Source: an uncultured Gammaproteobacteria bacterium (lineage in GTDB: Bacteria; Patescibacteriota; Patescibacteriia; Patescibacteriales; UBA12465). From it: DNA of 64,000 nucleotides. A program made the translations under genes and the position numbers. How positions within the stretch are numbered: the first letter of the stretch is position 1; every line of letters starts with the position of its first letter. Where the stretch lies: NCBI GenBank assembly GCA_964435515.1, contig CAYSZD010000002.1:25042-89041 (forward strand), read 5' to 3'. The notes under the pieces are model-generated. The model ran no database searches. It was not told the DNA's origin and was given only the letters and a program-made list of their open reading frames with translations. This document shows positions 10,801 to 29,188 of the stretch, one piece after another.

Positions 10801-13800
10801 CATTACTCTCTAATTGATAGTCGATAATAGCTTTCTTTAACACTATTTCATGATTAGCATTGGGACCAAAAACTCGGACCCATTTATTATTTCTGGAATG
10901 AAAAATATAGCGTTGAGAAGGATTATCTCTTGGAATAACAAATGAATTAATTAACTCACTACTCAAACTATTATCTTCTTGTAATTGTGACAATCCAATA
11001 GGCGACTCCACTCTCACATCATACACCAGGGCTGGATTAGCAGTATTAACGGATATGATATATAAAGAATTTGGCTCTACATCTACTCTCTGACTAGCAT
11101 TGGCGCCAGTCCCATCCCAAGCGTTATTATTCTGATCAGCACTAGGATCTTTAACTAAATTAACCGAGAAAGAACTTACCGGATCGATATATTCAGTACA
11201 ACTAGATTGACTCGCCTCACATATAGCCGCTGATTCTGATGGAATAGGTATTTGTTGACCTCCGCCTCCATAGCCAAAGGTTTTAAAGTATGAAACCGGA
11301 CATTCATAATCATTATTATCAATTACACAGGGACGATTAGCCGCACAATCAGTAGCACTAGCACAAATCTTTGTTCCCTTCTCAATACCATCAATATTAC
11401 CATTATTATTTAAATCGCAGCGCATAACAGGCGACTTATACCAAGCCTTACCAACTTTTTCTGGATCAGTACTATTTCTATAAACACAAGTATTGTTAGC
11501 TGGGTTCTTGAAATAGGCAGTACCTGTTCCATCAAGATATTGCCAAGCCTCGCAACCAGAATCTAAAGCGCTACAAATAATAGAATCATATTTATTTGGA
11601 TTATTACGCTTAAAGACATCTGACCAGGCTAAATTTTCAGCTGAAGAAATAGCTTCACCAAAACGAGAACAACCTAAATCGGCTACATTACATTGCTTAG
11701 TTTTATCATAGATAGCATAGGTAAATTTATCTCCTGCTACTTTAATACACTCTGGCTCATTGGAATCACACAAGCCATTATCATTAGTATCTTTCCAAAT
11801 ATTTCCCTTAAAATTATCAAAGTTAGCAGTACTAATCATCATTTCACAACCAACAGCTGAATCTTGACATAATTTATTAAATTGACGTAAATAATGAACA
11901 GTGTTTGCTCTATCGGTATAAGCAGAACAACCAAGATTATAGTCAGGTCCCTGATAATTATCCAACATATCGTAGTAGCAGATATCAGGAATTTGACTGG
12001 TATTTTTAATTAAATAATAGCGATTACTAATTTCCGTTAAGACTAAATTATCAAGATAAAAATCAGCACTAGCAACTATAACTAAAGACTCATTAGCATC
12101 CACTTGATGATCTAGAACTGGTAAATTAATTTCATAAGTCTGCCACTCATTATTACCATTTATTACAAAACTACCATTTGAATTACTTTCACTAGCATTG
12201 AAATAGACCATCTCATCTTTAGAGTTTAAGAAGCCTACATAAACATTAGTATTATTAGCAGCGCTAGCAGTAAATTTAAGACTATAGGCCTTACTTTCAG
12301 AAACACTATTACCTAATATTTTTCTGATGAAAGAACTTGGAGCAGCGTTAGCGCTACCCATAATACGATCTAACCAACCAGTCTGATTGGATTGATCACA
12401 ATTTGTTTGTTGTTGAACACCACCAGCATTAGCCCCTCTATCATACATTAATGATTGACCATTGTTTGAATTAGCAACTGGTGAATGAACAGCTGCATCG
12501 CCACACTGTCCCTCCCAGCCCTCTAAACCAAAGGCAAAGCTGTTAGAACTAATGAGTCTAGTATTATTGCCTAAATTACCATTATATTCTCGACAACCAT
12601 TCTCCTGAGCTGAACACTTTGTGCCTTCTTGTGGAATTGCTTGATACAGACAAGCTTGTTGTTCATTATTCCAAAGGCCACCATTTTTACAAACATAACA
12701 ACTAGAAATAGTGCTATTCCAAGATCTGTCCGTACCCACACATTCAGCTTGAGAGACAGTTGTATCAATATTATTTTCCGTTAATCTATAACTATGACAA
12801 TTTTCTGAACAAGTAATTGTACTACTATTTAAGCGATATGATATTTGACCAGCCTTATTATAATACTGACGACAATCAGGGTTAAAGAAAGGATCGCTTG
12901 GAGGAAGATTAAATATACTTTCATTGCAATAGGCACTACCATCACTAGTTGCGGCTGGATTGCCACTTTCATCTTTCTTTAATACAAAAGATTTAAGTTG
13001 ATAGCCGCTTTCTTCTGTGCCTACCCAAGTATAGAAATCAGCACAATCAGCCCCAGGCTTAATACATTGTTTTAACTGAACATAATATTCCCTATTTTCT
13101 CCGCCCATAGCCGCATCGTCTAGATTGGTAAATTCACTACAACCAACTGCTTGAGCGCTACAAGTCTGACTATTTTGAGGAATAATTTTTTCTGCTTGAG
13201 GGGAATAGAAATAGTTAGCCCGACTAACATATAAGTCGTAGCCATTACAACTAGAATCACAGTAATCAGTGGTAACTGCTTGAGCTGCCACTGAGAAACC
13301 ACTACTTAATTCAGAAAAACGTTCGCAACCAGCTTCGTCCATGTTACATTGACGAGCAAAATTACTACATACTGCCGGAGCATCAATCTTTAAACGATAA
13401 TCAGGAGAACTGGAATTAGCATCTTGATAACAAGTATCTTTTAGATAATTAGGAATTAATTTTTCGTAAATCTTTTGAGAGCCATATGCAGAAAAACCAG
13501 AATCAAAAGAACTCATTTCTAATTTAACATTTCTCACCGCAAATTCAGTAGGACCATTATCGCTATAGGCAGTTATTCCAAAAGATAACTCTGATAATGG
13601 TTTTTCTCGTAAGTCTCTGGTGACACTCAAGTGTCGCCACACCTGCTGGTCAGTTGTTTGCACTGCAGCAGTATAGTCATCCCCTAAGATTACGTGCACC
13701 CTATCACCTGTAATTAAATAAACATCCGCACTAAGGGTATAGGTTTCATCGGAGATAACATTAAAATCAGCTGGCAACAAAGACACTGCGTTATTTGAAT

Positions 13801-16165
13801 AAAGACTAATAACTTCACTAGTAGAACTAGCTCTAATAGCTTTGCCAAGAGAAATACCATCTAAAGAAGAAGTATCTATAATTTCCGCTGAACGTGTGCC
13901 ATTGGACCAAAAACTCCAATAATTATTAATCCTTGATTCAACCGCCACATCACCAATGTTATCATTAGAAAAATCAGCCCCCATGACTAAATTAGAACCC
14001 CAAGCAGACTTAACTCTCATCATCTCCTGACAAGACTCAGAATCAGATGAACAACTTTCTAATTTATCGTTAAAATAAGCATTAGCAAAAGGATTAGCCG
14101 ACCAAGTCACTTGACCACTATCAACATCATAACTGCCATTAGTAGAATAACGCTGACAACCTACTGAGTCGGCAGTACAATCACCATAATCTAAAGTATT
14201 CTCTAAATAAGATACCTTTGCACCACTGCTAGCTGAAACAAAAGAACTACAAGTATTGTTAATAGGATCGCAAGAAGGAGAATTAAAATTCCAAGTTCTT
14301 CTCTCAGATAAACAATGACCATAAGTTTCACAACTGCCATCAGGATTTTCATCAATACAACTTTGATCATCGCCACAATAATTATCAGCTCTTACCACTG
14401 TCACTGTATCGCTAATAGCAGCATTATCACTCACACTAGGAATTACGCTTACATTTAAAATTTGAGAGCTATATCCTTGAGCAGAACAATAGTTAAGAGG
14501 AGCCTTAAGCACCCAATTAGGGTCAACTAAACCTCGACACCAAGATTGATTTAAAATATTAAAATTAGAGCTATAGGAAGTATATTTATCACTAGCGCTA
14601 AAACAAGACATTAAGTCTAATAAAGTAGCATTTTGATTATACTGAGCAGCTATTTCCCAACTAGTAGGGACAATTCTGTATTTACGTAAAATTTGAATAT
14701 TACGTAAATTATAAGTGCCATCTCTATATTCACTAGTAAATTGCCAATCCGAACGTAAATAGCCCTCCTTAACTGCCTCTGCTACCGTTTTCTTCTCAGT
14801 AACTCCTTGCATAAATCTTTCATCAATTACGCAATCAGTTGGACCAGGATTATTACGATCCCTACAAGTACTAAGTGCCACTAAAATATTGTAATCACCT
14901 CTAGTACCGAAATTTGGTTCAATAATCTCAGCCATGCTTTCACGCACTTTCCCTTCTCCATAACGAATATTAGGGTCACTATAAATATTATTGTCATCAC
15001 CACTAGTAGCAATCTTACCTAAATTACTCATCTTCTTATTAAAAAAGCTAACAGCTAATTGATTTAAAAATACATTAGCCGCATCGATTAAAGCATCTCC
15101 GGTAAATTCACCAATATTATTAATATAACCCTGTTCTGACATCTCTATTTTTCTCTCAGCGTCACCAGGAGTGCCAACAATATTACCAGCAATATTGCGC
15201 ACATCCAACCAGCCTTTATTGGATTCTAAAGTTGTCTTCGCCTTATCTTCTTCACTATTAATTATGCTTTGACTATTAGCCCGAAGGGTATAATAGATAC
15301 CTAAATCATTAGAGGCTGGATTAAAAAGATCTCTCATGTTAGTAAAGAAATGAGGATCAGTGTATATTTCTGTTTGACGATAATATTCATCATCCCAGCG
15401 CTCTACCATCTGTGAAGCTGAACAATTTGGCGCCTTTGGTCTTTGATAGTCAACCAAAGCTAAGGATATTTTTAATCTAGCATCCAAAGAAGAAGGACGA
15501 CAAACCAAAGTTGCTAACGAAGAAGCTGGTAATCTACTTGAGGTAACTCCATCACTGCCAGTATCAACTCCACTGCATTGAAATAATTGTGCCTCACATT
15601 GAGCCATGGTTTTTTTTGGAAAAGAGACTCTACAAGTGTCTGTGCAAGAAGCTGGATTATTAATACCGCAGCTTCTAACGCATTTTGAATAATCCCTATC
15701 GCCTATACAATCATCATAAGCTAACTTACACTGCTCATTTTTTTCTGTACCTTTTGCGTCACTTGTCCAACTGGCATTCTGCCAATTAGCTACAGCCGTT
15801 TCTAAAAACTGCCCAGCCGCTTCATCACCAATTTGACTCAAATAATCACCCCAACCTTGAGTCACAAAAAGTGGTTTTTGTCCTTCTCGCCCAGAACCAA
15901 TCCAATTGGCAGTATCATAGGCAATTTTATTTAAAGCGGTGCGAGTCGCTTGTTGCAGAGCAGCTGCTCCTCCCTTTTCGTAGGCCTTTTTGATAAAATC
16001 CCAAAGAGGATTTAACACCGTATTAGAAATACCCTGATTAATATCCGCAGTTTGGGCTTTAGTTGCTTTAGGAGAAATAACAAAAAAAGAAAATACCAGA
16101 ATCAACAAAAGCAAAAAAGATCGCCATCTAAAACGATTATTATAAAACTTGGAACTATTAGACAT
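7835..16165 (-). CDS. Giant secreted Cys-rich surface protein (2776 aa) with CBM/jelly-roll-like modules and a C-terminal PKD/Ig-like domain
   Basis: Uninterrupted 8.3-kb ORF with N-terminal signal/anchor RSFLLLLILVFSFFVISPKATKA. At least 9 copies of C-x5-[GS]-C-x-x-[FYWM] (CTADSVGCQRY, CSSDSESCQEM, CNMDEAGCERF, CSAQAVGCSEF, CSAQENGCREY, CQDSAVGCEMM, CNVADLGCSRF, CSALDSGCEAW, CEASQSSCTEY). Three beta-sandwich-like blocks end in FAVRNVKLE (~13510-13960), DFYLDNLVLTE (~12030-12330) and VYFDDINIEP (~9850-10230). The C-terminus VNWGDGN...HVVYHYYATVGIKNFSIRVTDNW resembles a PKD domain. Confidence 0.9.
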   Translation of the reverse strand: MSNSSKFYNNRFRWRSFLLLLILVFSFFVISPKATKAQTADINQGISNTVLNPLWDFIKKAYEKGGAAALQQATRTALNKIAYDTANWIGSGREGQKPLFVTQGWGDYLSQIGDEAAGQFLETAVANWQNASWTSDAKGTEKNEQCKLAYDDCIGDRDYSKCVRSCGINNPASCTDTCRVSFPKKTMAQCEAQLFQCSGVDTGSDGVTSSRLPASSLATLVCRPSSLDARLKISLALVDYQRPKAPNCSASQMVERWDDEYYRQTEIYTDPHFFTNMRDLFNPASNDLGIYYTLRANSQSIINSEEDKAKTTLESNKGWLDVRNIAGNIVGTPGDAERKIEMSEQGYINNIGEFTGDALIDAANVFLNQLAVSFFNKKMSNLGKIATSGDDNNIYSDPNIRYGEGKVRESMAEIIEPNFGTRGDYNILVALSTCRDRNNPGPTDCVIDERFMQGVTEKKTVAEAVKEGYLRSDWQFTSEYRDGTYNLRNIQILRKYRIVPTSWEIAAQYNQNATLLDLMSCFSASDKYTSYSSNFNILNQSWCRGLVDPNWVLKAPLNYCSAQGYSSQILNVSVIPSVSDNAAISDTVTVVRADNYCGDDQSCIDENPDGSCETYGHCLSERRTWNFNSPSCDPINNTCSSFVSASSGAKVSYLENTLDYGDCTADSVGCQRYSTNGSYDVDSGQVTWSANPFANAYFNDKLESCSSDSESCQEMMRVKSAWGSNLVMGADFSNDNIGDVAVESRINNYWSFWSNGTRSAEIIDTSSLDGISLGKAIRASSTSEVISLYSNNAVSLLPADFNVISDETYTLSADVYLITGDRVHVILGDDYTAAVQTTDQQVWRHLSVTRDLREKPLSELSFGITAYSDNGPTEFAVRNVKLEMSSFDSGFSAYGSQKIYEKLIPNYLKDTCYQDANSSSPDYRLKIDAPAVCSNFARQCNMDEAGCERFSELSSGFSVAAQAVTTDYCDSSCNGYDLYVSRANYFYSPQAEKIIPQNSQTCSAQAVGCSEFTNLDDAAMGGENREYYVQLKQCIKPGADCADFYTWVGTEESGYQLKSFVLKKDESGNPAATSDGSAYCNESIFNLPPSDPFFNPDCRQYYNKAGQISYRLNSSTITCSENCHSYRLTENNIDTTVSQAECVGTDRSWNSTISSCYVCKNGGLWNNEQQACLYQAIPQEGTKCSAQENGCREYNGNLGNNTRLISSNSFAFGLEGWEGQCGDAAVHSPVANSNNGQSLMYDRGANAGGVQQQTNCDQSNQTGWLDRIMGSANAAPSSFIRKILGNSVSESKAYSLKFTASAANNTNVYVGFLNSKDEMVYFNASESNSNGSFVINGNNEWQTYEINLPVLDHQVDANESLVIVASADFYLDNLVLTEISNRYYLIKNTSQIPDICYYDMLDNYQGPDYNLGCSAYTDRANTVHYLRQFNKLCQDSAVGCEMMISTANFDNFKGNIWKDTNDNGLCDSNEPECIKVAGDKFTYAIYDKTKQCNVADLGCSRFGEAISSAENLAWSDVFKRNNPNKYDSIICSALDSGCEAWQYLDGTGTAYFKNPANNTCVYRNSTDPEKVGKAWYKSPVMRCDLNNNGNIDGIEKGTKICASATDCAANRPCVIDNNDYECPVSYFKTFGYGGGGQQIPIPSESAAICEASQSSCTEYIDPVSSFSVNLVKDPSADQNNNAWDGTGANASQRVDVEPNSLYIISVNTANPALVYDVRVESPIGLSQLQEDNSLSSELINSFVIPRDNPSQRYIFHSRNNKWVRVFGPNANHEIVLKKAIIDYQLESNVDKTTCNGLVNEADGCILFNERSMNGGQGLLSLSGGWNAAASQDGQAPQVCTTGNCDSNTLIKVRPDRTCASWLDCMTYVVDADTGERTCYALGECNALNDQGECMNFVAPDNSIVNAASSDLTKLSGYSVLDKYSLARMKEVGSNTTAHFNFEAASPTLYCQKIGTSSPCVFTSSIQAESIINSPSNAPADYPAEGGAYLRVMSGQMISPHSVNSPIVLPNNSLTNRTTHYINFLLNTKDTGVQARVSVYEYSAQSDYYNQTPLKTQIFSANQGWERKVMSFNVAADNDKVVLMLSVENGSRTEERYVYFDDINIEPVLEVGNNEYVAKECRLYPSQDALSCSSVNSKVVKDGLVGYCLQHDSANKNVCLLWYPVDEISANFKSARSTLGYQGAFPLNYCTEANGNFTLVEKRVAKLVDSEKENSAGNDSLSCFYEDGSTSNFCTVNNGTNDDTNNEPELHNKCQPDRSSNFDYFILQFRGWDRKDTFCIPLNNDRLATTIDPLSITTSHKDSGTQSFDFSFDVSDYNGWYIYDGFSSRTDSTLNEAKNANPSVRIFDRTVYNNNQTIDEDDLKLISSPDSEKVYYPTCNKFVQVVDNDGNNKAWADRVSKNSAYLFDTPAFFRDVNTFYGSIPDTCHITEYNCTDECACDNGCNCFTEPAHCQPPCGFIGDCLAWEAVQTPVDCSTPGAIHTISVNNYDFTKYGRNRELVPFGAATFPDNFNIFASEAVKFRNQYSSKIDQEAFAGRPYGCSGPGCSNLGYCSLDPNVYCILDYTDSANKSLVNQRSCGAANGTCVPMWNGGKVADQNSLTPFLSDNILKNTFLTSYDGYTFSKGKGTYESAYGYIDINNNIPVNYIDSITQNGACLNLTCHASTNDSSFNTYWHYVLPIISQVKINSVPVSGNSINVQSPGIYKLSFNTTIDKEQQPLRDLIVNWGDGNIQNLVNQDSRPNITDPHVVYHYYATVGIKNFSIRVTDNWSLYRVWP
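8131..8162 (-). repeat. 32-nt direct repeat, copy 1 (inside the giant gene, 98 codons before its stop)
   Basis: Identical to 7061-7092. It encodes SFNTYWHYVL in the giant ORF frame. Confidence 0.9.
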
Positions 16166-16199: not shown

Positions 16200-16838
16200 C
16201 TATTCTGCTTGAAGTTCTTGCTGACCCAACATATCTTGATAACTTGACATTAATTCTTCGTCGCTTAATTCCTGCAACATTTTTTCATCAACCCCACTGG
16301 CTAATAATAATACTCTGAGCTCCTCTGCACTAGCCTGGCCTAAGAGCATAGAGTTCATTATGCCATCTATTTCTCCCGAGTTAGACAAAGAAAGATTATT
16401 TGAAGCTTCTGGAATAATGGCAATATTTTCCTGTTGATTTACCACTTTAATTTCATTATTACACTCTGCACCGCTAGCACATAAGGGATCAGTGCCTTGA
16501 TTAACTTCATCACGATCACTAATATTATCGCCATCTGTATCAGTTAAATAAGCTGAAGTATTATATAAAGATTGCTCTTCATAATCAGACAAACCATCAC
16601 CATCAGTATCGGCATTTAAAGCTAACTGATTAAAATTTTCCGTTTCTTCATTCAAACTCACATTTTTAGCTCCATTTGAAACACTAAATGGGTCAGTAAG
16701 GCGCAGGTTTATTTGCCAAACCCAAAGAATTAATACACCTAAACTAAGCACTGAAAGAAATATAAAAGAATTCTTTTGTTTTTTAGGAAGATTGCTAAAA
16801 AAAGAATTTTTAGATTCTGTGATAGATTTTTTTGACAT
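16200..16838 (-). CDS. Membrane-anchored protein with thrombospondin-type-3/dockerin-like Ca-binding repeats
   Basis: N-terminal TM helix (FIFLSVLSLGVLILWVW). Two D-x-D-x-D-G-x-x-D-x-x-E loops (DTDGDGLSDYEE, DTDGDNISDRDE). The stop lies 34 nt upstream of the giant gene start. Confidence 0.8.
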   Translation of the reverse strand: MSKKSITESKNSFFSNLPKKQKNSFIFLSVLSLGVLILWVWQINLRLTDPFSVSNGAKNVSLNEETENFNQLALNADTDGDGLSDYEEQSLYNTSAYLTDTDGDNISDRDEVNQGTDPLCASGAECNNEIKVVNQQENIAIIPEASNNLSLSNSGEIDGIMNSMLLGQASAEELRVLLLASGVDEKMLQELSDEELMSSYQDMLGQQELQAE

Positions 16839-20199: not shown

Positions 20200-20961
20200 T
20201 TATAGCTCTATTACAACAGGTGCATGATCTGAACCAAATATTTGATCTAAAATATAAGCTTTCTTTAGGCAACTCTTTAGCTTAGAGGAAATCACAAAAT
20301 AGTCAATGCGCCAACCCACATTTCTTGCTCTAGCCCCTGCCCTAAAACTCCACCATGAATACTGCACTTTTTCTTGATTTAATAGACGAAAACTATCAAT
20401 ATAACCAGCTTGAAGGAGTTGATGAAACCAAGCCCTCTCTTCTTTAGTAAAGCCAGCCGCACCCTCATTTGCCTTAGGACGAGCTAAATCAATCTCTTGA
20501 TGTGCGACATTAAAATCTCCAGTAATTATAACTGGCTTCTTTTTTTCTAATTTTAAAATATGCTTTAATAGAGCCTCATTAAAACCCTGCTTATAACTCA
20601 ATCTAGATAATTCTTGATTAGCATTAGGAAAATATACATTTAGTAAATAATAGTCTTGCATTTCTAATACCTGGACTCTGCCCTCAGCGTCATACTCATC
20701 ATGAGAAAATCCATTACTAACATCCACATATTCCACTCCTTCTTTTATCAGTATAGCTGTACCACTATAGCCAGGTCTCTTAGCGCCATGCCAATAATTA
20801 TAATAATCAGCAATTGATAAATCCAACTTCTCTCTAGTCTCGTCAGCAATTTTTATTTCCTGTAAACATAAAATATCTGGTTTTTCACTAGCTAAAAAGT
20901 CCAAGAAATTCTTCCCCAAAGCCGCTCTTATTCCATTGATGTTCCAAGAAATTATTTTCAT
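20200..20961 (-). CDS. xth: Exodeoxyribonuclease III (AP endonuclease)
   Basis: MKIISWNINGIRA start, LCLQE, GDFNVAH, and the C-terminal SDHAPV motif. The track ORF adds 10 upstream codons that are probably not translated. Confidence 0.9.
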   Translation of the reverse strand: MKIISWNINGIRAALGKNFLDFLASEKPDILCLQEIKIADETREKLDLSIADYYNYWHGAKRPGYSGTAILIKEGVEYVDVSNGFSHDEYDAEGRVQVLEMQDYYLLNVYFPNANQELSRLSYKQGFNEALLKHILKLEKKKPVIITGDFNVAHQEIDLARPKANEGAAGFTKEERAWFHQLLQAGYIDSFRLLNQEKVQYSWWSFRAGARARNVGWRIDYFVISSKLKSCLKKAYILDQIFGSDHAPVVIEL

Positions 20962-21081
20962 AAACAATCTATTCATTAACAGCTCATTCAAATAGCCACA
21001 AAAAAGCTAATATGTTATAATATGTTTAAATGAATAATAAACTAAGTATAAGATAAATATTATCTTTTTTCAACTAATAAT

Positions 21082-21837
21082 ATGAGCTTAGATGAACGTG
21101 TAAACTATTTAAAAATGAAGGAAAAATACAAAAATAAACTCAAACCATGGTATAAAAAATGGTGGGGAATAATTTTTATTATTATAATTACCCTTATTAT
21201 TGCCGCTATCATCACTTCTGCTATTTACGTTATAAAACAAGTCAAAGAAATACGAAGCGGTCAATCTGAACTTGCCAATACAGAAGAATTAGCAAAAATT
21301 ACTGCTGCTATTGATGGTAATGGCGAACACTATAGTCTTGGCTCTATTAACGCCCCTGTGCAAATAATGGTTTTCTCTGATTACGCCTGCCCTTACTGCA
21401 AAGAATCAATGCCAATTATATATAGTCTTGCTAAAAAATATCCTAGTGAAATTAGAATAACCATGAGGGATTATCCTGCTCTTGGTTCAAATTCTATTAA
21501 TCTGGCTCTAGCTGCTCATTGCGCCGGAGAACAAAATAATTTTTGGCAAATGCATGATAAATTATTTGAAAATCAAGACGCCCTACTTATAATTGATGAA
21601 TCTTCAATTGACAGTGAATTAAAGAAAATTGCTAGCAACATTAATCTTAATCAAGAAACATTTGCTAGTTGTCTAGATGAAAAAAAATATTTATATAGAC
21701 TTAACGACGATTTTGCCGATGCTGAATTTTTAGGAGTATCCGGCACACCAACCTGGTTTATTAACCGCTACAAAATTACTGGTTTATATGCTGAAGAAAA
21801 TTTTAGCAGCCTAATTGAAGGCCTCTTGGTTCAATAA
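21082..21837 (+). CDS. Membrane-anchored DsbA-family thiol:disulfide oxidoreductase
   Basis: N-terminal TM helix (WWGIIFIIIITLIIAAIITSAIYVI) and thioredoxin-fold active site ACPYC. The stop abuts the porG start (21839). Confidence 0.8.
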   Translation: MSLDERVNYLKMKEKYKNKLKPWYKKWWGIIFIIIITLIIAAIITSAIYVIKQVKEIRSGQSELANTEELAKITAAIDGNGEHYSLGSINAPVQIMVFSDYACPYCKESMPIIYSLAKKYPSEIRITMRDYPALGSNSINLALAAHCAGEQNNFWQMHDKLFENQDALLIIDESSIDSELKKIASNINLNQETFASCLDEKKYLYRLNDDFADAEFLGVSGTPTWFINRYKITGLYAEENFSSLIEGLLVQ

Positions 21838-21838
21838 T

Positions 21839-22399
21839 ATGATTAGTATTAGAATTCATGGAAGAGGAGGACAAGGCACTATCGCAGCCGCAGAATTAAT
21901 TGCTTTAACTGCTTTTTATCAAAACTTATACGCTCAATCCCTACCCTTTTTTGGCGTCGAAAGAAGTGGCGCGCCTATACAGGCTTTTGTTCGTATTAAT
22001 AATCTACCTATCATTACTCATTCTCAAGCCAATGAACCAGATTATTTAATTATTCAAGACGACAGTTTGCTCAGTGATAAAGCTATTTGGAAGGGTCTAG
22101 ATAAAAACACTAAAATCCTTATCAACACTACTAAGGCTGATAAAGAAATAAAGAAAGAAATTCCGACTCTATTTAAAAAAAATGAAATAACTGTCATTAA
22201 TGCCACCCAAATAGCCCTTGATCATTTACGCAAAAATATTATTAACACTGCTCTTTTAGGTGCTTTTAGTGCTAAATATAGTTTAATTAATAAAGATAAG
22301 GCGCTGATGTCTATCCATAATAAATTTAGTGATAAAGGCAGGGGCACAATTAAGCTAAACCAAAAAATATTTATCACCGCTTATGAACAAACAAAGTAA
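21839..22399 (+). CDS. porG: Pyruvate/2-oxoacid:ferredoxin oxidoreductase, gamma subunit
   Basis: IRIHGRGGQGTIAAAELIA N-terminal motif; the size fits the gamma subunit. Start is taken at MISIRIHG; the track ORF starts at 21815. Confidence 0.85.
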   Translation: MISIRIHGRGGQGTIAAAELIALTAFYQNLYAQSLPFFGVERSGAPIQAFVRINNLPIITHSQANEPDYLIIQDDSLLSDKAIWKGLDKNTKILINTTKADKEIKKEIPTLFKKNEITVINATQIALDHLRKNIINTALLGAFSAKYSLINKDKALMSIHNKFSDKGRGTIKLNQKIFITAYEQTK

Positions 22400-22667
22400 A
22401 AAAAATATTAGTCGTCGTCCTATCACAAGCCCTGGATCAGCAATGGAAAACAAGACTGGTCACTGGCGCAATGAACATCCAGAAATTGATAAGCATAAAT
22501 GTATTGCTTGTTCTTTGTGTGCTAAATTATGTCCTGATAATTGTATCTATATGAAAGAAGCTAAAAATGGACGACTTATTGCTGAGCCAGATTTAGACTA
22601 TTGCAAAGGTTGTGGCATCTGTGCCTCTGAGTGCCCAGTTAAGGCTATTAGAATGCTAAGAGATTAA
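22383..22667 (+). CDS. porD: Pyruvate/2-oxoacid:ferredoxin oxidoreductase, delta subunit (2x[4Fe-4S])
   Basis: Two ferredoxin Cys clusters, CIACSLCAKLCP and CKGCGICASECP. Overlaps the porG end. Confidence 0.85.
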   Translation: MNKQSKKNISRRPITSPGSAMENKTGHWRNEHPEIDKHKCIACSLCAKLCPDNCIYMKEAKNGRLIAEPDLDYCKGCGICASECPVKAIRMLRD

Positions 22668-22674
22668 AATAAAT

Positions 22675-23829
22675 ATGATAAATAAGAATAAGAATCAATT
22701 TTTAGAAGGCTCTCGAGCTATTGCCATGACAATTGCTAATATTCAGCCAGACCTTGTTTCTGCCTATCCAATTACCCCTCAAACTCATATTGTCGAAGAA
22801 TTGGCTCGCCTAAAAGAAATAGGTCAAGCTAAATATGAATACATTAGAGCTGAAAGTGAATTTGCGGCTGCTTCTATATTAGTAGGAGCTAGTGCTGCTG
22901 GTGGTCGTACCTATAGCGCTACCAGCTCCCAAGGAGTGCTACTGATGATGGAAGTACTATACAATGCCTCTGGATTACGATTACCCATTGTTATGACCAT
23001 AGCCAATCGAGCTATCAGTGCTCCTATAAATATATTTAATGACCATAGCGATGCTATGGCCATGAAAGACTCTGGCTGGCTCATGCTATTTGCAGAAAAT
23101 CACCAAGAAGCTGTTGATTTACATATCATTGCCTATAAACTAGCCGAGCAATTAGAACTGCCAGTCGCAGTCAATGTAGATGGCTTCATCATTACTCATT
23201 CCTATGAAAATGTTTTGCTAGCAGATAAGAAAACCATTCAATCCTATCTACCTAAATATAAGCCCGTCCCTAATAGTTTTTTAGATGCAAAACATCCAAT
23301 CACTCTGGGCGGATATTTTTCTCCTGAACACTATCATCAGTCCAGACAAGACTTAAATAAAGATATACAAAATTCTCAAAAAAATATTAGTCAAGAATTT
23401 AAAGCTTGGCAAAAAATTTTTCCATCACCTAAAACTATTAAAGCTAAATTTGATAATGGGCTAATAGAATATTGTGGTCCCCAAAAAGCCAAAACTATTA
23501 TTATTGCCATGGGGTCTGTATGTGGAACTATTAAAGAAGCTATTAAAGATAATAAGGATTGTGGATTAATAAAAATAAGAAGCTTTAGACCATTTCCACA
23601 AACAAGTTTAAATAAAATTATTCCACATAATTGCCAACTAGCAATTTTAGAAAAAAATAGTCCAGTTAGTAATTATGGTCCACTCTATCAAGAAACAATC
23701 TCATCTTTAAAAGATTTTAAAGGCATTGCTAGTAATCATATTATTGGTTTAGGTGGTAAAGACGTGAATGAAAAAGATATTAAACATATTATTAAAGCCA
23801 GTAATAAAAGCGGGCTTAGATTTTGGTAA
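22675..23829 (+). CDS. porA: Pyruvate/2-oxoacid:ferredoxin oxidoreductase, alpha subunit
   Basis: 384 aa; N-terminus FLEGSRAIAMT...AYPITPQT is typical of PorA/KorA. Confidence 0.9.
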   Translation: MINKNKNQFLEGSRAIAMTIANIQPDLVSAYPITPQTHIVEELARLKEIGQAKYEYIRAESEFAAASILVGASAAGGRTYSATSSQGVLLMMEVLYNASGLRLPIVMTIANRAISAPINIFNDHSDAMAMKDSGWLMLFAENHQEAVDLHIIAYKLAEQLELPVAVNVDGFIITHSYENVLLADKKTIQSYLPKYKPVPNSFLDAKHPITLGGYFSPEHYHQSRQDLNKDIQNSQKNISQEFKAWQKIFPSPKTIKAKFDNGLIEYCGPQKAKTIIIAMGSVCGTIKEAIKDNKDCGLIKIRSFRPFPQTSLNKIIPHNCQLAILEKNSPVSNYGPLYQETISSLKDFKGIASNHIIGLGGKDVNEKDIKHIIKASNKSGLRFW

Positions 23830-23835
23830 AAATAT

Positions 23836-24672
23836 ATGAAAATAAATCACTTACTAAAAAAAATTATCTTTCTCAGTTTTTTTCTTTCTCTCTTTTTTAT
23901 TTGTGCCTTAGAAAATGCTAATGCTGTCGGTGTTAATGAGCCTTTAAAATTTCAACCACAAACCACTATTCCTAATCTATGGACCAAGGGCACTGAGGTG
24001 ACTTTAGAAAAAAGTGATACCAGTGTAATTGCTAGCATGATTAAAGGTTTCTATAACTATGGTATTGGCATCGCTGGCATCTTAGCCGCTATTATGCTAA
24101 TGGCGGGAGGTATTATCTGGCTCACCTCAGCTGGTAGTAGCGAAAAAGTATCTCAAGCTAAAAATTTATTAGGAGGAAGCGTTATTGGCTTAGTAATACT
24201 CTTTGGCTCCTGGATAATGCTTAGAACTATTAACCCTGCTTTAGTTGATTTTAGGATTCAAGATGTAAAACCAATAGATAATATAAAAATTGGCTCTTGC
24301 TGTGAATATAATTTTACAAAACCAGCTAAAGAGAATGTATCCCAAAAAGACTGTTTAAATGATGGCGGAACATTCTTTGCAAAAGCTAAAGTTCTAGAAA
24401 ATACTAATTCCAACCTCAATATTTGTGTCGATAGCGGTTGTTGCAAGTGTAAAATAGGCGGCTCATTTAACACTTTATGGGCTTCTGATTCTAACTGCAT
24501 AGACGAAAATACAGAAGGTAATAAAGTTTTACCAGATACTTGTGCGTACGCTTGTGAAGTGGCTGGCAAGGCGCACAATTTACCATATGAAAGCCTTTTT
24601 AGTTGGGGAAAGGTTTGCAGCGATTCTGGAGAATGCACCTTTAGTAACGGGGGGGCTAGTAGTGAATGGTAA
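23836..24672 (+). CDS. Secreted protein: signal peptide, TrbC/VirB2-like two-helix pilin hairpin, C-terminal Cys-rich domain
   Basis: Signal peptide IIFLSFFLSLFFICALENANA. Hairpin GIAGILAAIMLMAGGIIWLTSAGSSEKVSQAKNLLGGSVIGLVILFGSWIMLRTINP (nt ~24058-24256). The tail has CC and CCKC clusters. Lies 6 nt after porA and overlaps the first possible porB ATG. Confidence 0.8.
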   Translation: MKINHLLKKIIFLSFFLSLFFICALENANAVGVNEPLKFQPQTTIPNLWTKGTEVTLEKSDTSVIASMIKGFYNYGIGIAGILAAIMLMAGGIIWLTSAGSSEKVSQAKNLLGGSVIGLVILFGSWIMLRTINPALVDFRIQDVKPIDNIKIGSCCEYNFTKPAKENVSQKDCLNDGGTFFAKAKVLENTNSNLNICVDSGCCKCKIGGSFNTLWASDSNCIDENTEGNKVLPDTCAYACEVAGKAHNLPYESLFSWGKVCSDSGECTFSNGGASSEW

Positions 24673-25538
24673 ATATATTTAACAATATGCAAAATCAAAT
24701 AAATCAATTTTTTACCTCTGGTCACAACGCCTGTAGTGGCTGCGGACAATTAAGCGCAGTTCAAGCAGTTATGCGAGGACTAACAAAAGATACCATTCTG
24801 GTTAGCTCAACTGGTTGTTTAGAAGTAACCACAACCGCTCACCCTCAAAGTGCTTGGAATTTGGCCTGGTTTCATTCTTTATTTGAAAATGCGGCTCCAA
24901 TAGCTAGTGGCATTAAAGCGGTATTAAATAAAAAGAAGAAAAAAACTAAAGTTGTTGTTCAAGCTGGAGATGGCGCCACTTTTGATATCGGGCTAGGACT
25001 ACTAAGCGGTCTCTGGGAAAGAAATGACGATGTATTATATATCTGCTATGATACTGAAGCCTATTCCAACACTGGCATTCAAGCTTCTGGAGCTACTCCT
25101 TATGGAGCTATGACAAGTACTAGTCCAAGTGGTATAAAACAAAGCAAAAAAGACATGTTAGCCATTGCTCTGTCTCATAAACTAAAATATGTAGCACAAA
25201 GTAGCGCCGGCTTTCCTGATGATATTACCAGAAAGGTAAAGAAAGCCTTAAGTATAACTGGTTCAAGTTATATTCAAATTTTAGCCCCCTGTATTCCCGG
25301 CTGGAAGATAAAAACTAATGAAAGTATTCAAACTGGTAAATTAGCAGTATTGAGCGGACTATATCCTCTGTTTGAATATGAAAATGAAAAACTAGTTAGT
25401 TCTAGTGCTAAGTCTAGTGATAGCGAATTAGTCTTACAATATTTACGCATCCAAGGAAGATTTAAACACCTTCAAGAAAATGATGTAAAAGAAATAATAA
25501 AATTAGCTGAGTTAAATAAGAAAAAATATAAAATATGA
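24666..25538 (+). CDS. porB: Pyruvate/2-oxoacid:ferredoxin oxidoreductase, beta subunit (TPP-binding)
   Basis: SGHNACSGCG Fe-S/TPP region and GDGATFDIGL TPP-binding motif. An alternative start is at 24687. Confidence 0.9.
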   Translation: MVNIFNNMQNQINQFFTSGHNACSGCGQLSAVQAVMRGLTKDTILVSSTGCLEVTTTAHPQSAWNLAWFHSLFENAAPIASGIKAVLNKKKKKTKVVVQAGDGATFDIGLGLLSGLWERNDDVLYICYDTEAYSNTGIQASGATPYGAMTSTSPSGIKQSKKDMLAIALSHKLKYVAQSSAGFPDDITRKVKKALSITGSSYIQILAPCIPGWKIKTNESIQTGKLAVLSGLYPLFEYENEKLVSSSAKSSDSELVLQYLRIQGRFKHLQENDVKEIIKLAELNKKKYKI

Positions 25539-26866
25539 ACAAAGAATTAAACAATATTTTTAAAATACTATTTCTTGCTTCATTTGTATTTCTAATTTTT
25601 ACACCCAAATTAGTGAATGCCAAAGAAACTAAGCTAACAAATTGTAACATAGTATATCTACAAGCTAATACTTCTGGCTCGTTAACATGTTCAAGCAGAG
25701 GCCAAGTTGAATCATACTATCTTAACTGCACTAATGATTCATCGCAGCAACTCACCCTTAATGAAGTTTGTTGTTGTACGCAAAACATAACATATTCGTG
25801 TAATTGGGCGCCTATTAAAAAATCAGGAACCGCTACCAATGAAAACATTGCACCTGAATGTGCTCAAAATGAAAAAGTAGGCAGTGACTGTGATCCCAAT
25901 ACAAAGCCAGAAGCTAAAATGGTGGCCGGAACACTTACTCAACCTTTATGTTGTTGTCCTAGCTCCGGCGGAGGAGCTGACGCTAACTATAGAGCAGATA
26001 TAATCCTTCCCCAACTATCAATAGCTATTGATACTGTTAAGTTGAGCCAGGAGGTATATTGTACTGGAGAAGATAATAGCGGTGATTGCTATTATCCCTG
26101 GATAGCAGAATATATCAATGGTATTTATAAATATGGCTTTGGTGTAGCAGGAATATTAGCAGCTATCATGCTCATGGCCGGTGGTATCATTTGGCTTATA
26201 TCTGCTGGTGATGCCTCTAAAATAACTCAAGCAAAAAATCTTATCACTGGTAGCATTGTTGGCCTAATTATTCTAAGTACTAGTTATATTATTCTGACTA
26301 TGATTAATCCTGATTTAGTAAGCCTAAAAGCTTTAAAGATAGGAGAGATAGAGAGAATAGTTGTTGAAGGTGATTCCTCAGAGCCAATGAACGTTAGTTC
26401 TAATGAAATAGCTAATATACTAGGAATAAAATGTGGTCAAGACAGTGTTGCTCAAATAGTAAATAAATCAAAAGGTAAAATTACTTACAGCAACGAAAAA
26501 AGAGGTCAAAGTGCTGGCAATGGATTAGTCTACTTAGATTGTTCTAGTTTTACTTCATTTGTCCAAGAATGTGCCGGACTACCTTCAGGAGGGACTTATA
26601 CCGGGACTATATTTAAAGACTCAATAATCTTTAACGATCCTGATACTTCTAATCTAAAACCTGGAGATTTAATAGGTTGGGGGCCACAACATAGTGGCGA
26701 CAAAGAAGGTCATGTATTAATTTATTTAGGCAATAAATTATTTGGCGATGTTCATGGCGGTGACTCTGGTCGTGAACCAGGAAATGCTGTTGGCTTATAT
26801 TCTCTAGCGTCCATTAAAGAATCAGCTGCAAGACACAATGTTGATAATTTATATATTAAAAAATAA
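25535..26866 (+). CDS. Secreted protein: N-terminal Cys-rich domain, TrbC/VirB2-like pilin hairpin, C-terminal NlpC/P60-type cell-wall hydrolase
   Basis: Signal peptide ILFLASFVFLIFTPKLVNA. CCC clusters. Hairpin GVAGILAAIMLMAGGIIWLISAGDASKITQAKNLITGSIVGLIILSTSYIILTMINP (nt ~26129-26321), paralogous to the one in 23836-24672. C-terminus has LDCSSFTSF (catalytic-Cys context) and GHVLIYLG (His), as in NlpC/P60. ATGA overlap with the porB stop. Confidence 0.8.
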   Translation: MNKELNNIFKILFLASFVFLIFTPKLVNAKETKLTNCNIVYLQANTSGSLTCSSRGQVESYYLNCTNDSSQQLTLNEVCCCTQNITYSCNWAPIKKSGTATNENIAPECAQNEKVGSDCDPNTKPEAKMVAGTLTQPLCCCPSSGGGADANYRADIILPQLSIAIDTVKLSQEVYCTGEDNSGDCYYPWIAEYINGIYKYGFGVAGILAAIMLMAGGIIWLISAGDASKITQAKNLITGSIVGLIILSTSYIILTMINPDLVSLKALKIGEIERIVVEGDSSEPMNVSSNEIANILGIKCGQDSVAQIVNKSKGKITYSNEKRGQSAGNGLVYLDCSSFTSFVQECAGLPSGGTYTGTIFKDSIIFNDPDTSNLKPGDLIGWGPQHSGDKEGHVLIYLGNKLFGDVHGGDSGREPGNAVGLYSLASIKESAARHNVDNLYIKK

Positions 26867-26881
26867 AAAAATAACATATCT

Positions 26882-26915
26882 AAAAACACCATCTCTTTAA
26901 AAGGTGGTGTTTTTA
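26882..26915. terminator. Bidirectional hairpin terminator between the convergent por string and rnhA
   Basis: AAAAACACCA (26882-26891) pairs with TGGTGTTTTT (26905-26914), with A and T runs on both sides. Confidence 0.5.
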
Positions 26916-26942
26916 TATATACTAAATAAATACTAATCTATT

Positions 26943-27347
26943 TTATAATACAGCCCTATCCATCGCTTCATTAGCTAATCTATCAGCTTCCTTATTCTTC
27001 TCTCTGACAACATGCTCACAACGATATGTTTTAAATTTAGTTAAAAGATTATGTACTTGTAAAAATAAAGGAGCCAATTCTTTATTCTTCACTTTATACT
27101 CCCTACTAATTTGCTTCACTATTAGCTCACTATCTAAAAAACAATGAACTGAATCTGCACCTAGAGCTAATGCTTTTTCTAGTCCTGCTATTAAAGCTTT
27201 ATACTCGGCCTGATTATTAGTGCTTATACCAATATACTCAGAAACTTCAGCTAATACATCTCCTTGCTCAGATTGCAAGAAAGCACCAATACCAGCTGGT
27301 CCTGGATTACCACGAGCCCCACCGTCTGAATGTAAAATAATAGTCAT
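26943..27347 (-). CDS. rnhA: Ribonuclease HI-like protein
   Basis: DGGARGNPGPAGIG, NNQAEYKALI, DSELIVKQ and NKEADRLAN give the DEDD RNase H motif order. Confidence 0.85.
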   Translation of the reverse strand: MTIILHSDGGARGNPGPAGIGAFLQSEQGDVLAEVSEYIGISTNNQAEYKALIAGLEKALALGADSVHCFLDSELIVKQISREYKVKNKELAPLFLQVHNLLTKFKTYRCEHVVREKNKEADRLANEAMDRAVL

Positions 27348-27358
27348 ATATTTATATA

Positions 27359-29188
27359 TTATTTATCATCTGAATAAAAACGCCAATCAACTATTTTTAA
27401 CTGTACTGTAGAACGTCCATTAAATTCATTAATATCTAAATAATATACTAAATCAATAATATCACCAGTATGTAATTCTTTATATTTTTCTACACAATTA
27501 AAATCAATAGCCCAAAAAGAATTAGACTGAGGATTATTAGCATCACTTAACCTCAGCTTAAGATGTTGTTTTTCTGCTCCCATAAACACAATATCTTCAA
27601 CCATAAGTGATAAGCTGGCAAAACGAGGCTGAGGATTATTTTGCCCATAAGGAGCTAGGCTGTTTATTTCTTTAACTAAGCTCAAACTTAAATCAGCTAA
27701 ATTCATTTCAGCATCAATCTTTATTTTAGGAGTTAAGATTTCTTCTGTGATGGACTTATTAGCGATTCCTAATAATTTTTCTTTAAATAGTTTTAGTTGT
27801 TCTTCGCTAATTACCGAAAAACCACAAGCCATTGGATGTCCACCATATTTATCTAAGTGTTCTGCACACTCTGTAATGGCGGCAATAAGATTAAAGCCCT
27901 CTAACGACCTACCAGAGCCTTTAAAAGATAATTTATTAGCAGTCATTTCTCCTTTTGCTATATCAGCTCCTGCCTCTTCAATAATACGAGTAACAACTAA
28001 AGTAGGCCGGCTATATTTTTCACAAATTCTACCAGCCACTAATCCAATTACTCCTTCATTCCAAAATTGATCTTCTTTAGCTACGCCAATAATAATAGCC
28101 GGAAGATTATTAGCATCAATTTGCGATTCAACTTGTTTAATAATATCTTCAGTAATCTGTTGACGACTTAAATTACGACGATTAAGCTCTAAGGCTAATT
28201 CTTGTGCTTCTTCTTCATCCTTCGTATTAATTAAGGCAAAAGCGCTATTAGCGTGACCCACTCGACTAGCCGCATTTAATCGCGGTCCTAATTGCCAACC
28301 AACATTCCAAGCTTCCAGTGGCTTGTCTAGTGCAATTCTAGCTATTTTAAATAAAGCCTTAAGTCCTGGTCGTTTATTTTCATTTAAAACAATCAGTCCT
28401 CTTTTCACTAATAATCTATTTTCACCTAAAAGATTAACTAAATCAGCAATAGTACCAACGGCTACTAAATCTAAAGCTCGTTTAGCGATAAGTTCTTTTT
28501 GCTTCACTTCTAGTTTTGACTTTTCTAGTAGAGCGCAAAGTAGTTTATAGGCCACTCCTACCCCAGCTAAATATGGCCAAGGGTAATTATCATTTTTATC
28601 AGCCGGATCTATTGTAGGACAATCAGGCAAGTCTTCAGCTAATTCTGGCAAGACATGATGGTCGGTAATAATAATATCTAAACCAATACTCTTAGCGTAG
28701 TCAACCTCATCTTTATTACGAATACCATTGTCAACGGTGATGATTAATTTAGCTCCTTGTTCGTATAATTCTTTCAAGGCTGGCTTATTTAATCCATAGC
28801 CTTCACTCACTCTGTCAGGCAAATATACTTCTACTTGAGCCTGCAGAGTGCTTAGACCCTCAACTAATACTGAGGCGGAGCTTACGCCATCAGCATCATA
28901 ATCACCATAAATAATAATCTTATTACCCGCTTTTATGTGTCCCACAATTTTTTCCACTGCCGCTTCCATGTTTTTAAATAAAAAAGGACTATAGAAACGT
29001 AAAGACGAATCTGTACTTAAATCTTGCACCAAGGATTCATCTATTTCTTCCTTTAAAAAAGCTTCAATCGCTATTTCAGTTTGAAAACCTCTATTCCAAA
29101 GTAAAGAAATCAATAAAGGAGAAATGGATGTTATTTTTTCTCTAAAATCAATTGGTGGCTGCGGAGCTATTTGCCAAATTTTTTTCAT
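27359..29188 (-). CDS. recJ: Single-stranded-DNA-specific exonuclease RecJ
   Basis: DHH family motifs GDYDADGVSS and IITDHHV, followed by a DHHA1-like region. Confidence 0.9.
   Translation of the reverse strand: MKKIWQIAPQPPIDFREKITSISPLLISLLWNRGFQTEIAIEAFLKEEIDESLVQDLSTDSSLRFYSPFLFKNMEAAVEKIVGHIKAGNKIIIYGDYDADGVSSASVLVEGLSTLQAQVEVYLPDRVSEGYGLNKPALKELYEQGAKLIITVDNGIRNKDEVDYAKSIGLDIIITDHHVLPELAEDLPDCPTIDPADKNDNYPWPYLAGVGVAYKLLCALLEKSKLEVKQKELIAKRALDLVAVGTIADLVNLLGENRLLVKRGLIVLNENKRPGLKALFKIARIALDKPLEAWNVGWQLGPRLNAASRVGHANSAFALINTKDEEEAQELALELNRRNLSRQQITEDIIKQVESQIDANNLPAIIIGVAKEDQFWNEGVIGLVAGRICEKYSRPTLVVTRIIEEAGADIAKGEMTANKLSFKGSGRSLEGFNLIAAITECAEHLDKYGGHPMACGFSVISEEQLKLFKEKLLGIANKSITEEILTPKIKIDAEMNLADLSLSLVKEINSLAPYGQNNPQPRFASLSLMVEDIVFMGAEKQHLKLRLSDANNPQSNSFWAIDFNCVEKYKELHTGDIIDLVYYLDINEFNGRSTVQLKIVDWRFYSDDK

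Follow-up and report, generated by a model that had tools for sequence, protein, structure and literature searches.

In the 64-kb window analysed here (the whole stretch of DNA under study, on contig CAYSZD010000002.1, from an ultrasmall Patescibacteria genome of Falkowbacteria type), the open reading frame (ORF) at 25535-26866 encodes a protein that joins a pilin-like membrane hairpin of the T4SS_pilin family (T4SS, type IV secretion system) to a C-terminal NlpC/P60 cell-wall hydrolase domain. Comparison with related genomes revealed that this gene, referred to here as hairpin gene 2, is one case of a clade-wide gene in which a hairpin carrier is combined with a wall hydrolase that is swapped as a cassette. 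The preliminary description of this DNA had proposed a hydrolase covalently attached to a pilin-like module, which was correct, and the same hairpin was found to carry seven or more kinds of hydrolase in relatives. With about even confidence, it is proposed that the pilin-like carrier brings the wall-cutting enzyme to the assembly site of the hairpin proteins, a VirB1 function provided in cis. The reading frame opens with ATG and closes with a stop codon at 26864-26866, and its origin by chance was ruled out by 145 homologues (best E = 1e-297).

A Pfam scan of the protein returned three families, namely T4SS_pilin (PF18895), Amidase_5 (PF05382), and NLPC_P60 (PF00877). In the C-terminal domain, Amidase_5 matched amino acids (aa) 307-401 with 22.7 bits against a gathering cutoff of 21, and NLPC_P60 matched aa 330-403 with 20.6 bits, just below its cutoff of 23; the latter family was also matched by 38 homologues at E <= 1e-3 (best 6.9e-11). 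In the PDB, a profile built from 20 homologous tails matched B. subtilis CwlO (1e-9), C. difficile Acd24020 (2e-9), and Spr/MepS (1e-5), followed by RipA, LytE, and a hydrolase of a Tn916-like conjugative element. In an AlphaFold2 model of the whole protein, built with 43 homologues (mean predicted local distance difference test score, pLDDT, of 83), an alpha/beta domain at aa 289-442 was modelled with pLDDT mostly of 85-98. The top 21 matches of this model in a Foldseek search of the PDB were all NlpC/P60 (best 7cfl, with a template modelling score, TM(target), of 0.72), and no significant fold match beyond NlpC/P60 was found there, while the viral fold matches were phage tail proteins bearing NlpC/P60 domains. 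The tail profile and the 21 fold matches thus bear out the C-terminal NlpC/P60 domain that had been suggested at first.

The two motifs on which that suggestion was built, LDCSSFTSF and GHVLIYLG, were located at aa 334-342 (26534-26560) and aa 392-399 (26708-26731), respectively, and the predicted catalytic residues are Cys336 (26540-26542), His393 (26711-26713), and Asp405 (26747-26749). In a single-sequence alignment, DCSSF and GHV align with the catalytic Cys and His of CwlO, and in the comparison of the tail profile with the PDB, GHV also aligns with the GHV of Acd24020. The proposed triad was found to align throughout the family, with Asp335-Cys336-Ser337 and His393 invariant in 39 of 39 NlpC-type tails, Asp or Glu at position 405 in all 39, and His407 kept in 33 of them. 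In the model, a helix begins at residue 336, the nucleophile Cys, and the strands at 393-399 and 402-406 carry His393 and Asp405. The canonical third residue, 12 positions after the His in the Acd24020 alignment, corresponds to Asp405, which by this alignment is more likely than His407 to complete the triad; His407 (26753-26755) may be a second-shell or an alternative third residue. Two further invariant residues of the domain, Cys300 and Cys346, may form a disulfide. With the defining sequence and fold features of the family, the domain belongs to C40 and appears to be an active Cys-His-Asp papain-type endopeptidase, probably specific for the gamma-D-Glu to diamino-acid bond of peptidoglycan stem peptides, to judge from its family.

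The hairpin was assigned to PF18895 at aa 189-255 with 27.0 bits against a gathering cutoff of 26.6, covering 66 of the 71 model positions, and the same family was matched by 117 of 120 homologues at E <= 1e-3. Sub-threshold NCBIfam matches to the Mbov_0395 family of pilin-like conjugal transfer proteins, known from an integrative and conjugative element (ICE) of Mycoplasma, were also recorded for 18 of 24 hairpins. The mean pairwise identity among homologues was 59% for the hairpin, 41% for the enzyme domain, 28% for the N-domain and linker, and 25% for the signal peptide; the hairpin is thus the most conserved part of the protein, which is unusual for a mere anchor. Its small residues Ala209, Gly217, and Gly243 are invariant, with a conserved INPxLV..K motif after helix 2. 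A signal peptide followed by two hydrophobic helices joined by a short Lys-containing loop is shared with classical VirB2 pilins. In contrast, the small size of those pilins is not shared, as the protein has 443 aa with an N-domain of 156 aa and an enzyme domain of 154 aa. Because neither the small size nor the location in a T4SS cluster applies, the protein is described as pilin-like and not as a pilin.

The hairpin family is very large (about 60,000 sequence clusters), as a profile search of 1.84 billion representatives returned 60,318 clusters at E <= 1e-3 and 13,320 at 1e-10. Some public proteins carry 2 to 17 tandem hairpin modules per polypeptide (P0121, P0122, P0130, P0133, and P0154), among them P0121, with a signal peptide, 4 hairpins, and an SLT-like lysozyme tail, and P0133, with 16-17 hairpins in 1775 aa. 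Such covalent concatenation suggests that hairpins pack side by side.

Both large domains of the protein are likely to lie outside the membrane with the hairpin loop inside, because a cleaved signal peptide is followed by two membrane helices. The signal peptide is of the ordinary Sec type, ending in ...LVNA before KE, and the hydropathy scan placed two hydrophobic helices at aa 200-227 and 235-259, in agreement with the helices of the model (3-22, 188-222, and 227-257). The hairpin loop has an average net charge of +0.6 and the N-flank one of -0.5, a weak positive bias. The order of signal peptide, outer Cys-rich domain, hairpin, and outer NlpC/P60 domain given in the preliminary description is therefore supported by hydropathy and model, with its topology being the probable one. 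The beta-rich fold of the N-domain was placed at aa 34-142; a separate model of this domain had a pLDDT of 79.5, mostly >90 over the first ~115 residues with a dip near residues 71-80, and a fold search of the PDB gave no match (best E 2.2), as for an orphan fold. The N-terminal part varies from 63 to 244 aa among homologues, and the Cys-rich domain is optional in relatives. An oxidising extracytoplasmic location fits the many Cys residues, the invariant pair Cys300/Cys346, and the DsbA-like gene that heads the local gene string.

Relatives were compared by means of 120 listed homologues of the 145 found and a gene-neighbourhood survey of 78 public loci from GTDB species representatives. The homologues belong to Patescibacteria, many of them labelled Candidatus Falkowbacteria. 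Nearly all of the 78 loci follow one arrangement of dsbA, por, and hairpin genes, and in ~60 loci the same order was retained, with exoIII (-) followed by dsbA, porG, porD, porA, hairpin gene 1, porB, and hairpin gene 2 (all +), and then by rnhA (-) and recJ (-), and the hairpin gene 2 proteins across these loci are positional orthologs. All 120 homologues consist of the hairpin followed by a tail of 125-370 aa. A search for the same fusion in other genomes, as advised in the preliminary description, was successful, with an NlpC/P60 tail in 40 of the 120 homologues only. The Pfam families recorded beside the hairpin were NLPC_P60 (38), VanY (17), Peptidase_M15 (14), SLT_3 (7), Amidase_2 (4), 3D (4), SLT (3), and C39_2 (1), and several of the unassigned tails had weak VanY, 3D, SLT_3, or glucosaminidase matches. 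An independent sample of 94 further representatives again yielded wall-hydrolase families only and added M23, M15_3, and M15_4. Every Pfam family found beside the hairpin in the sampled close relatives is thus a peptidoglycan hydrolase.

At the position of hairpin gene 2 (slot 2), the enzymes were 3D-like in 24 hairpin genes, VanY/M15 in 10, VanY-like in 9, and NlpC/P60 in 9 (the window included), with SLT_3 (2), C39_2 (1), and Amidase_2 (in L088) as rarer classes. When the slot-2 enzyme classes were mapped onto a neighbour-joining PorB tree (51 loci), at least 15 changes were required, compared with 19-29 for shuffled tips, and genomes with 82-90% identical PorB hold different classes, e.g., NlpC/P60 in the window and VanY-like in L021. 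In relatives with other tails, the similarity stops at query residues 273-278, within the disordered linker. Second or third hairpin-hydrolase genes were observed right after slot 2 in L004/L014, L007/L050, L037, L054, L049, and L074, and these small arrays mix classes, such as NlpC/P60 then 3D-like in L004 and VanY-like then SLT_3 in L054.

The first paralog with the same hairpin, which the preliminary description had also reported, is present as hairpin gene 1 (slot 1), a conserved partner of hairpin gene 2, and the hairpins of the two genes in the window are 59% identical. The slot-1 tails are Cys-rich and fall into two main sequence clusters (47 and 6 members), and neither a Pfam match nor an enzyme motif was found in them in loci L001-L089; they may resemble adhesins or serve as subunits that partner the slot-2 enzyme. 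Six loci without POR (pyruvate/2-oxoacid:ferredoxin oxidoreductase) genes keep dsbA followed by hairpin genes (L013, L049, L062, L074, L075, and L080). In the distant lineage L086 and L087, the order is a PD40-repeat protein, DsbA, the hairpin-NlpC/P60 fusion, RadA, and RecG; Uhrbacteria L036 has the same flanks, but dsbA was not detected there, and its fusion passed the T4SS_pilin cutoff when rescanned. The constant companion of the hairpin genes is thus DsbA rather than POR or T4SS core genes, which suggests that DsbA and the Cys-rich hairpin protein form a module.

The window has a G+C content of ~34% and is gene-dense with typical housekeeping genes, and its features are collected in Table 1. 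Between porA and porB lies hairpin gene 1, which overlaps porB by 7 bases, and the porB stop overlaps the ATG of hairpin gene 2 (ATGA, 25535-25538). Because the genes overlap or abut, the string from dsbA through the por and hairpin genes appears to be co-transcribed; a promoter and terminator scan of 20900-27400 performed no better than on shuffled sequence. Hairpin gene 2 is followed by an RNase H gene on the opposite strand. Two genes for envelope proteins are thereby interleaved with the four por genes of a metabolic operon, an order shared by about 60 species-level genomes.

Table 1. Positions of hairpin gene 2, its parts, and other features in the window
Feature	Position	Strand	Description
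2776-aa protein	7835-16165	-	signal peptide; no Pfam match
TSP3-repeat protein	16200-16838	-	bacterial TSP3-repeat protein, neighbour region
dsbA	21082-21837	+	membrane-anchored DsbA-like thiol-disulfide oxidoreductase (Pfam); heads the gene string
porG	21815-22399	+	subunit of the four-subunit pyruvate/2-oxoacid:ferredoxin oxidoreductase
porD	22383-22667	+	pyruvate/2-oxoacid:ferredoxin oxidoreductase subunit
porA	22675-23829	+	pyruvate/2-oxoacid:ferredoxin oxidoreductase subunit
Hairpin gene 1 (slot 1)	23836-24672	+	278 aa; signal peptide, hairpin at aa 68-131 (T4SS_pilin), Cys-rich C-terminal tail without known domain
porB	24666-25538	+	pyruvate/2-oxoacid:ferredoxin oxidoreductase subunit
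Hairpin gene 2 (slot 2)	25535-26866	+	443 aa; pilin-like hairpin fused to NlpC/P60 hydrolase
 Sec-type signal peptide	25535-25621	+	aa 1-29 (MNKELNNIFKILFLASFVFLIFTPKLVNA, followed by KE); hydropathy scan, model helix 3-22, low pLDDT at 24-31; probable cleavage site
 N-terminal ectodomain	25622-26089	+	aa 30-185; Cys-rich, beta-rich; 14 Cys including two CCC motifs
 VirB2/T4SS_pilin-like hairpin	26090-26320	+	aa 186-262; helix 188-222, loop SAGDASKITQAK, helix 227-257, then INPxL motif; PF18895
 Flexible linker	26321-26401	+	aa 263-289; pLDDT <50 at aa 271-275; junction of C-terminal domain exchange between genomes
 NlpC/P60 (C40) domain	26402-26863	+	aa 290-443; papain-like peptidoglycan endopeptidase (Pfam, model, profile, conservation)
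LysM-M23 wall hydrolase	55776-57122	+	N-terminal membrane segment, two to three LysM repeats, Peptidase_M23
Probable small integrated element	57434-63752		
 tRNA-Ala	57434-57507	+	
 Large serine recombinase	57445-59106	-	3' end overlaps tRNA-Ala
 Replication protein	59570-60424		Rep_ORF2/G2P-like
 ATPase	61416-63752		778 aa, ABC/SMC-like

Elsewhere in the window, the LysM-M23 protein shows that conventional wall-binding modules serve other hydrolases of this organism as well. The region downstream of it is a probable small integrated element, in which the replication protein is followed by a 224-aa ORF and the ATPase. The 2776-aa protein adjoins the TSP3-repeat protein and has orthologs of 2675-2829 aa with faint CBM_4_9 matches at the same position in relatives; it is probably a surface or adhesion protein. 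Among the metagenome-assembled genome (MAG) records, many that carry the Patescibacteria-specific block are titled uncultured Gammaproteobacteria, Bacillota, Bacteroidota, Lutibacter, or Thermoplasmatales (L010, L012, L013, L021, L071, L077, and L079 are among the oddly titled ones), and such titles are likely taxonomic mislabels or the result of bin contamination.

For the proposed mechanism, the protein would be exported through Sec and its signal peptide removed, after which the hairpin helices would remain membrane-embedded, their short Lys-containing loop facing inward. This would leave the Cys-rich N-domain and the NlpC/P60 domain outside, where the neighbouring DsbA-like enzyme may oxidise their Cys residues and the NlpC/P60 domain would cut peptidoglycan stem peptides. 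The hairpin would pack with its paralog from hairpin gene 1, and probably also with other pilin-like proteins, so that the enzyme would be positioned where the hairpin assembly crosses the wall and would open a hole in the cell's own wall. The enzyme domain would be freely exchanged because any bond-cutting chemistry serves hole-making. Bond specificities that change this freely speak against an autolysin dedicated to growth or division and for a local hole-making role like that of VirB1-type enzymes, phage tail lysins, and evolved secretion-system spikes. Moreover, the strong constraint on the hairpin argues for packing with partners beyond anchoring.

The link to T4SS comes from the literature on the hairpin family. 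In entries of Table S3 of Quinonero-Coronel et al. 2025, PF18895 genes stand beside VirB4, TrsD, VirB3, and VirB6 in many Patescibacteria (PMC12102498). At least four of 69 mentions of Falkowbacteria assemblies in tables S1/S3 of the same source are classed ABY1 and VirB4-positive, and from these listings of at least four assemblies a T4SS would be expected in the same genome as the fusion (PMC12102498). RadA and RecG, which flank the fusion in L086 and L087, have been reported near class ABY1 T4SS loci (PMC12102498). It has also been remarked that most Patescibacteria with VirB2 homologues are without VirB1, and in Ca. Southlakia the peptidase and lysozyme genes adjoining virB4 are essential. 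Both the missing VirB1 and these essential genes would fit a VirB1 function in cis.

Several observations weigh against this interpretation. No T4SS core gene (VirB4/VirB6/VirD4) was found in the 64-kb window by ORF survey and Pfam, or within 10 kb of the fusion in the gene tables of about 12 related loci. The VirB3/VirB4/VirB6 neighbourhood expected of VirB2 pilin genes was likewise not present in the window or in these ~12 loci, and no VirB4 lies within 10 kb in L086/L087. When the hairpin sequence and a 24-sequence hairpin profile were searched against all PDB chains, no VirB2/TraA pilin was matched, a search that is of limited decisiveness for short hydrophobic hairpins; because no solved pilin was matched, the relationship to VirB2 is based on Pfam and NCBIfam. 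For this protein the T4SS_pilin score in Pfam is marginal, and a two-helix hydrophobic hairpin carries little information. For the pilin-like identity put forward in the preliminary description, the family match therefore stands, whereas similarity to solved pilins was not found, and the gene is part of the POR operon and not of a T4SS cluster. A constitutive cell-wall enzyme would suit the housekeeping surroundings and the apparent co-transcription with a metabolic operon, and by our own estimate the end domains of ~150 and ~180 aa would make a homopolymeric VirB2-type filament sterically difficult. The enzyme activity and the localisation are predicted.

The constitutive role just mentioned leads to the strongest competing explanation, which we consider possible if rather improbable: that the protein is an ordinary housekeeping autolysin, with the hairpin serving merely to tether an endopeptidase of growth or division to the membrane, beside the cell's own wall, in a monoderm without outer membrane. 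The label "T4SS pilin" would then be a misnomer for this hairpin subfamily. Such a role agrees with the tight or overlapping junctions and the housekeeping neighbours (LeuRS, ExoIII, POR, RNase H, RecJ, LepA, and MurJ), with the retention of the gene in nearly every genome of the clade, with the lack of T4SS genes nearby in the window, and with CwlO and Acd24020, both autolysins, as the best sequence matches. However, an enzyme with a defined bond specificity is unlikely to have been replaced 15 or more times by endopeptidase, M15 peptidase, amidase, and lytic transglycosylase-like chemistries at a single locus in close relatives. Neither would an anchor be expected to be more conserved than its enzyme; in other genomes, members of the hairpin family are linked to T4SS genes, and a conventional LysM-anchored M23 hydrolase is present in the same window.

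The wall that is cut could also be that of a host. We regard it as unlikely that the VirB2-like hairpins of Patescibacteria carry an interchangeable wall-degrading arsenal, with hydrolase-bearing T4SS-type pilus subunits drilling the host wall at the attachment site. If this were true, in-place cassette swapping would record adaptation to host wall chemistry, and it would explain T4SS without VirB1 and, in part, why T4SS and pilin arrays are essential for epibiotic life. For the protein studied here, the hairpin would have to leave the membrane and enter a VirB2-type filament or its tip, so that the displayed hydrolase cuts the host wall at contact and its swapping tracks host wall chemistry, with the Cys-rich domain displayed as well; we consider this quite unlikely. 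Cassette exchange on a constant carrier does resemble phage tail lysins, and the viral fold matches were indeed phage tail proteins with NlpC/P60 domains. Polymorphic effectors likewise show cassette exchange on a constant carrier. In solved VirB2/TraA pili both termini face outward, and the extra domains here sit on the termini. Adhesin roles are conceivable for the variable N-domain and slot-1 tails, and epibiotic Patescibacteria need a T4SS and pilin array for growth on their hosts (PMC10633639, PMC12857230). On the other hand, no immunity-like gene lies beside the enzyme, the next gene being RNase H on the other strand, and bulky domains at both termini pose a steric problem. The making of such pili by this clade is hypothetical, as is pilus formation by the hairpin proteins of the window.

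The protein might instead be a pro-pilin, in which a cut in the linker after INPxL frees a soluble hydrolase at the assembly site and leaves a small mature pilin. Trimming of the C-terminus is known for TrbC/VirB2 pilins, and C-terminal processing is established for TrbC of RP4. The disordered linker is the exact swap point here, and the conserved INPxLV..K motif follows helix 2. Nevertheless, this is very improbable, as no protease, TraF-like, or sortase-like gene was found nearby in the window and the N-terminal domain of 150 aa would stay attached. A phage lysis remnant, i.e., a holin-like segment with two transmembrane helices fused to an endolysin, is scarcely credible: such helices are combined with a lysin here and Amidase_5, a phage peptidoglycan hydrolase family, scored above its Pfam cutoff, but a cleaved signal peptide and a sizeable ectodomain at the N-terminus are present, and the hairpin belongs to PF18895. 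The holin-endolysin or prophage idea was rejected given the syntenic housekeeping locus across about 60 species, with no phage genes.

The fusion bears on how ultrasmall epibiotic bacteria cross cell walls. Much of bacterial diversity falls to the Patescibacteria, whose cells live attached to others; their T4SS and VirB2-like pilin arrays proved essential in the only species tested. The proposed VirB1 function in cis offers a concrete, testable answer, namely that the pilin-like protein itself carries the wall-cutting activity. In addition, the relatives provide a natural panel of enzymes on one carrier (endopeptidase, M15 peptidase, amidase, and lytic transglycosylase-like), which helps to separate an own-wall from a host-wall target.

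The protein shares features with several known systems. Like the VirB2-like pilin arrays of Patescibacteria, including the essential array of Ca. Southlakia epibionticum, it has a hairpin of PF18895; unlike them, it is a large protein with two extra domains and is encoded in the POR operon. Published descriptions of Patescibacteria T4SS and VirB2-like arrays (including PMC12102498, PMC10633639, and PMC12857230) present them as pilins and mention no enzyme fusions. Full-text literature searches, whose coverage excludes most subscription journals, brought up no account of a fusion between a VirB2-like pilin and a wall hydrolase, and public annotation names members "C40 family peptidase", "pilin", or "hypothetical". 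With the CwlO/LytE/MepS D,L-endopeptidase autolysins (C40), the protein shares the catalytic fold and the Cys and His positions, and its third catalytic residue is Asp at the canonical +12 position; those enzymes use coiled-coil, LysM, or lipoprotein targeting, and none has a VirB2-like hairpin.

The design of a small pilin carrier with a functional module grafted via a short linker recalls the modular type IV pilins, such as PilB of Streptococcus sanguinis (PMC8179133), whose grafted modules are probably tip-exposed, widespread, diverse, and mostly adhesins (PMC8179133). Those pilins belong to a different filament system; by contrast, the present protein has no prepilin-peptidase leader, the modules grafted here are exclusively wall hydrolases, and no type IV pilin domain (the modular pilin module IPR012902) was found in the Pfam or NCBIfam scans of it. 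Virion-associated peptidoglycan hydrolases and evolved VgrG/PAAR effectors likewise combine a structural carrier with an interchangeable wall-degrading domain for a local breach, whereas here there is no phage or type VI secretion system context and the carrier is a membrane hairpin.

The VirB1-type hydrolases of monoderm conjugative T4SS (PrgK of pCF10, TraG of pIP501, CwlT of ICEBs1, Orf14 of Tn916, and their relatives) are similar in being membrane-tethered extracytoplasmic wall enzymes, whose SLT, CHAP, or NlpC/P60 domains make a local opening in the wall for the T4SS, a role summarised in PMC12102498. The NlpC/P60 hydrolase Orf16 of a Tn916-like element (9ubf) was among both the sequence and the fold matches of the present protein. 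Unlike it, the VirB1-type hydrolases are separate proteins, each held by one N-terminal anchor and encoded within the T4SS cluster. The present enzyme forms one chain with a VirB2-like hairpin, its gene is located away from any T4SS cluster, and in relatives other enzyme types take its place. As VirB1-like proteins are defined by being encoded in a T4SS and this hydrolase is encoded in the POR operon, the protein is not filed as VirB1, although by analogy it may work like one.

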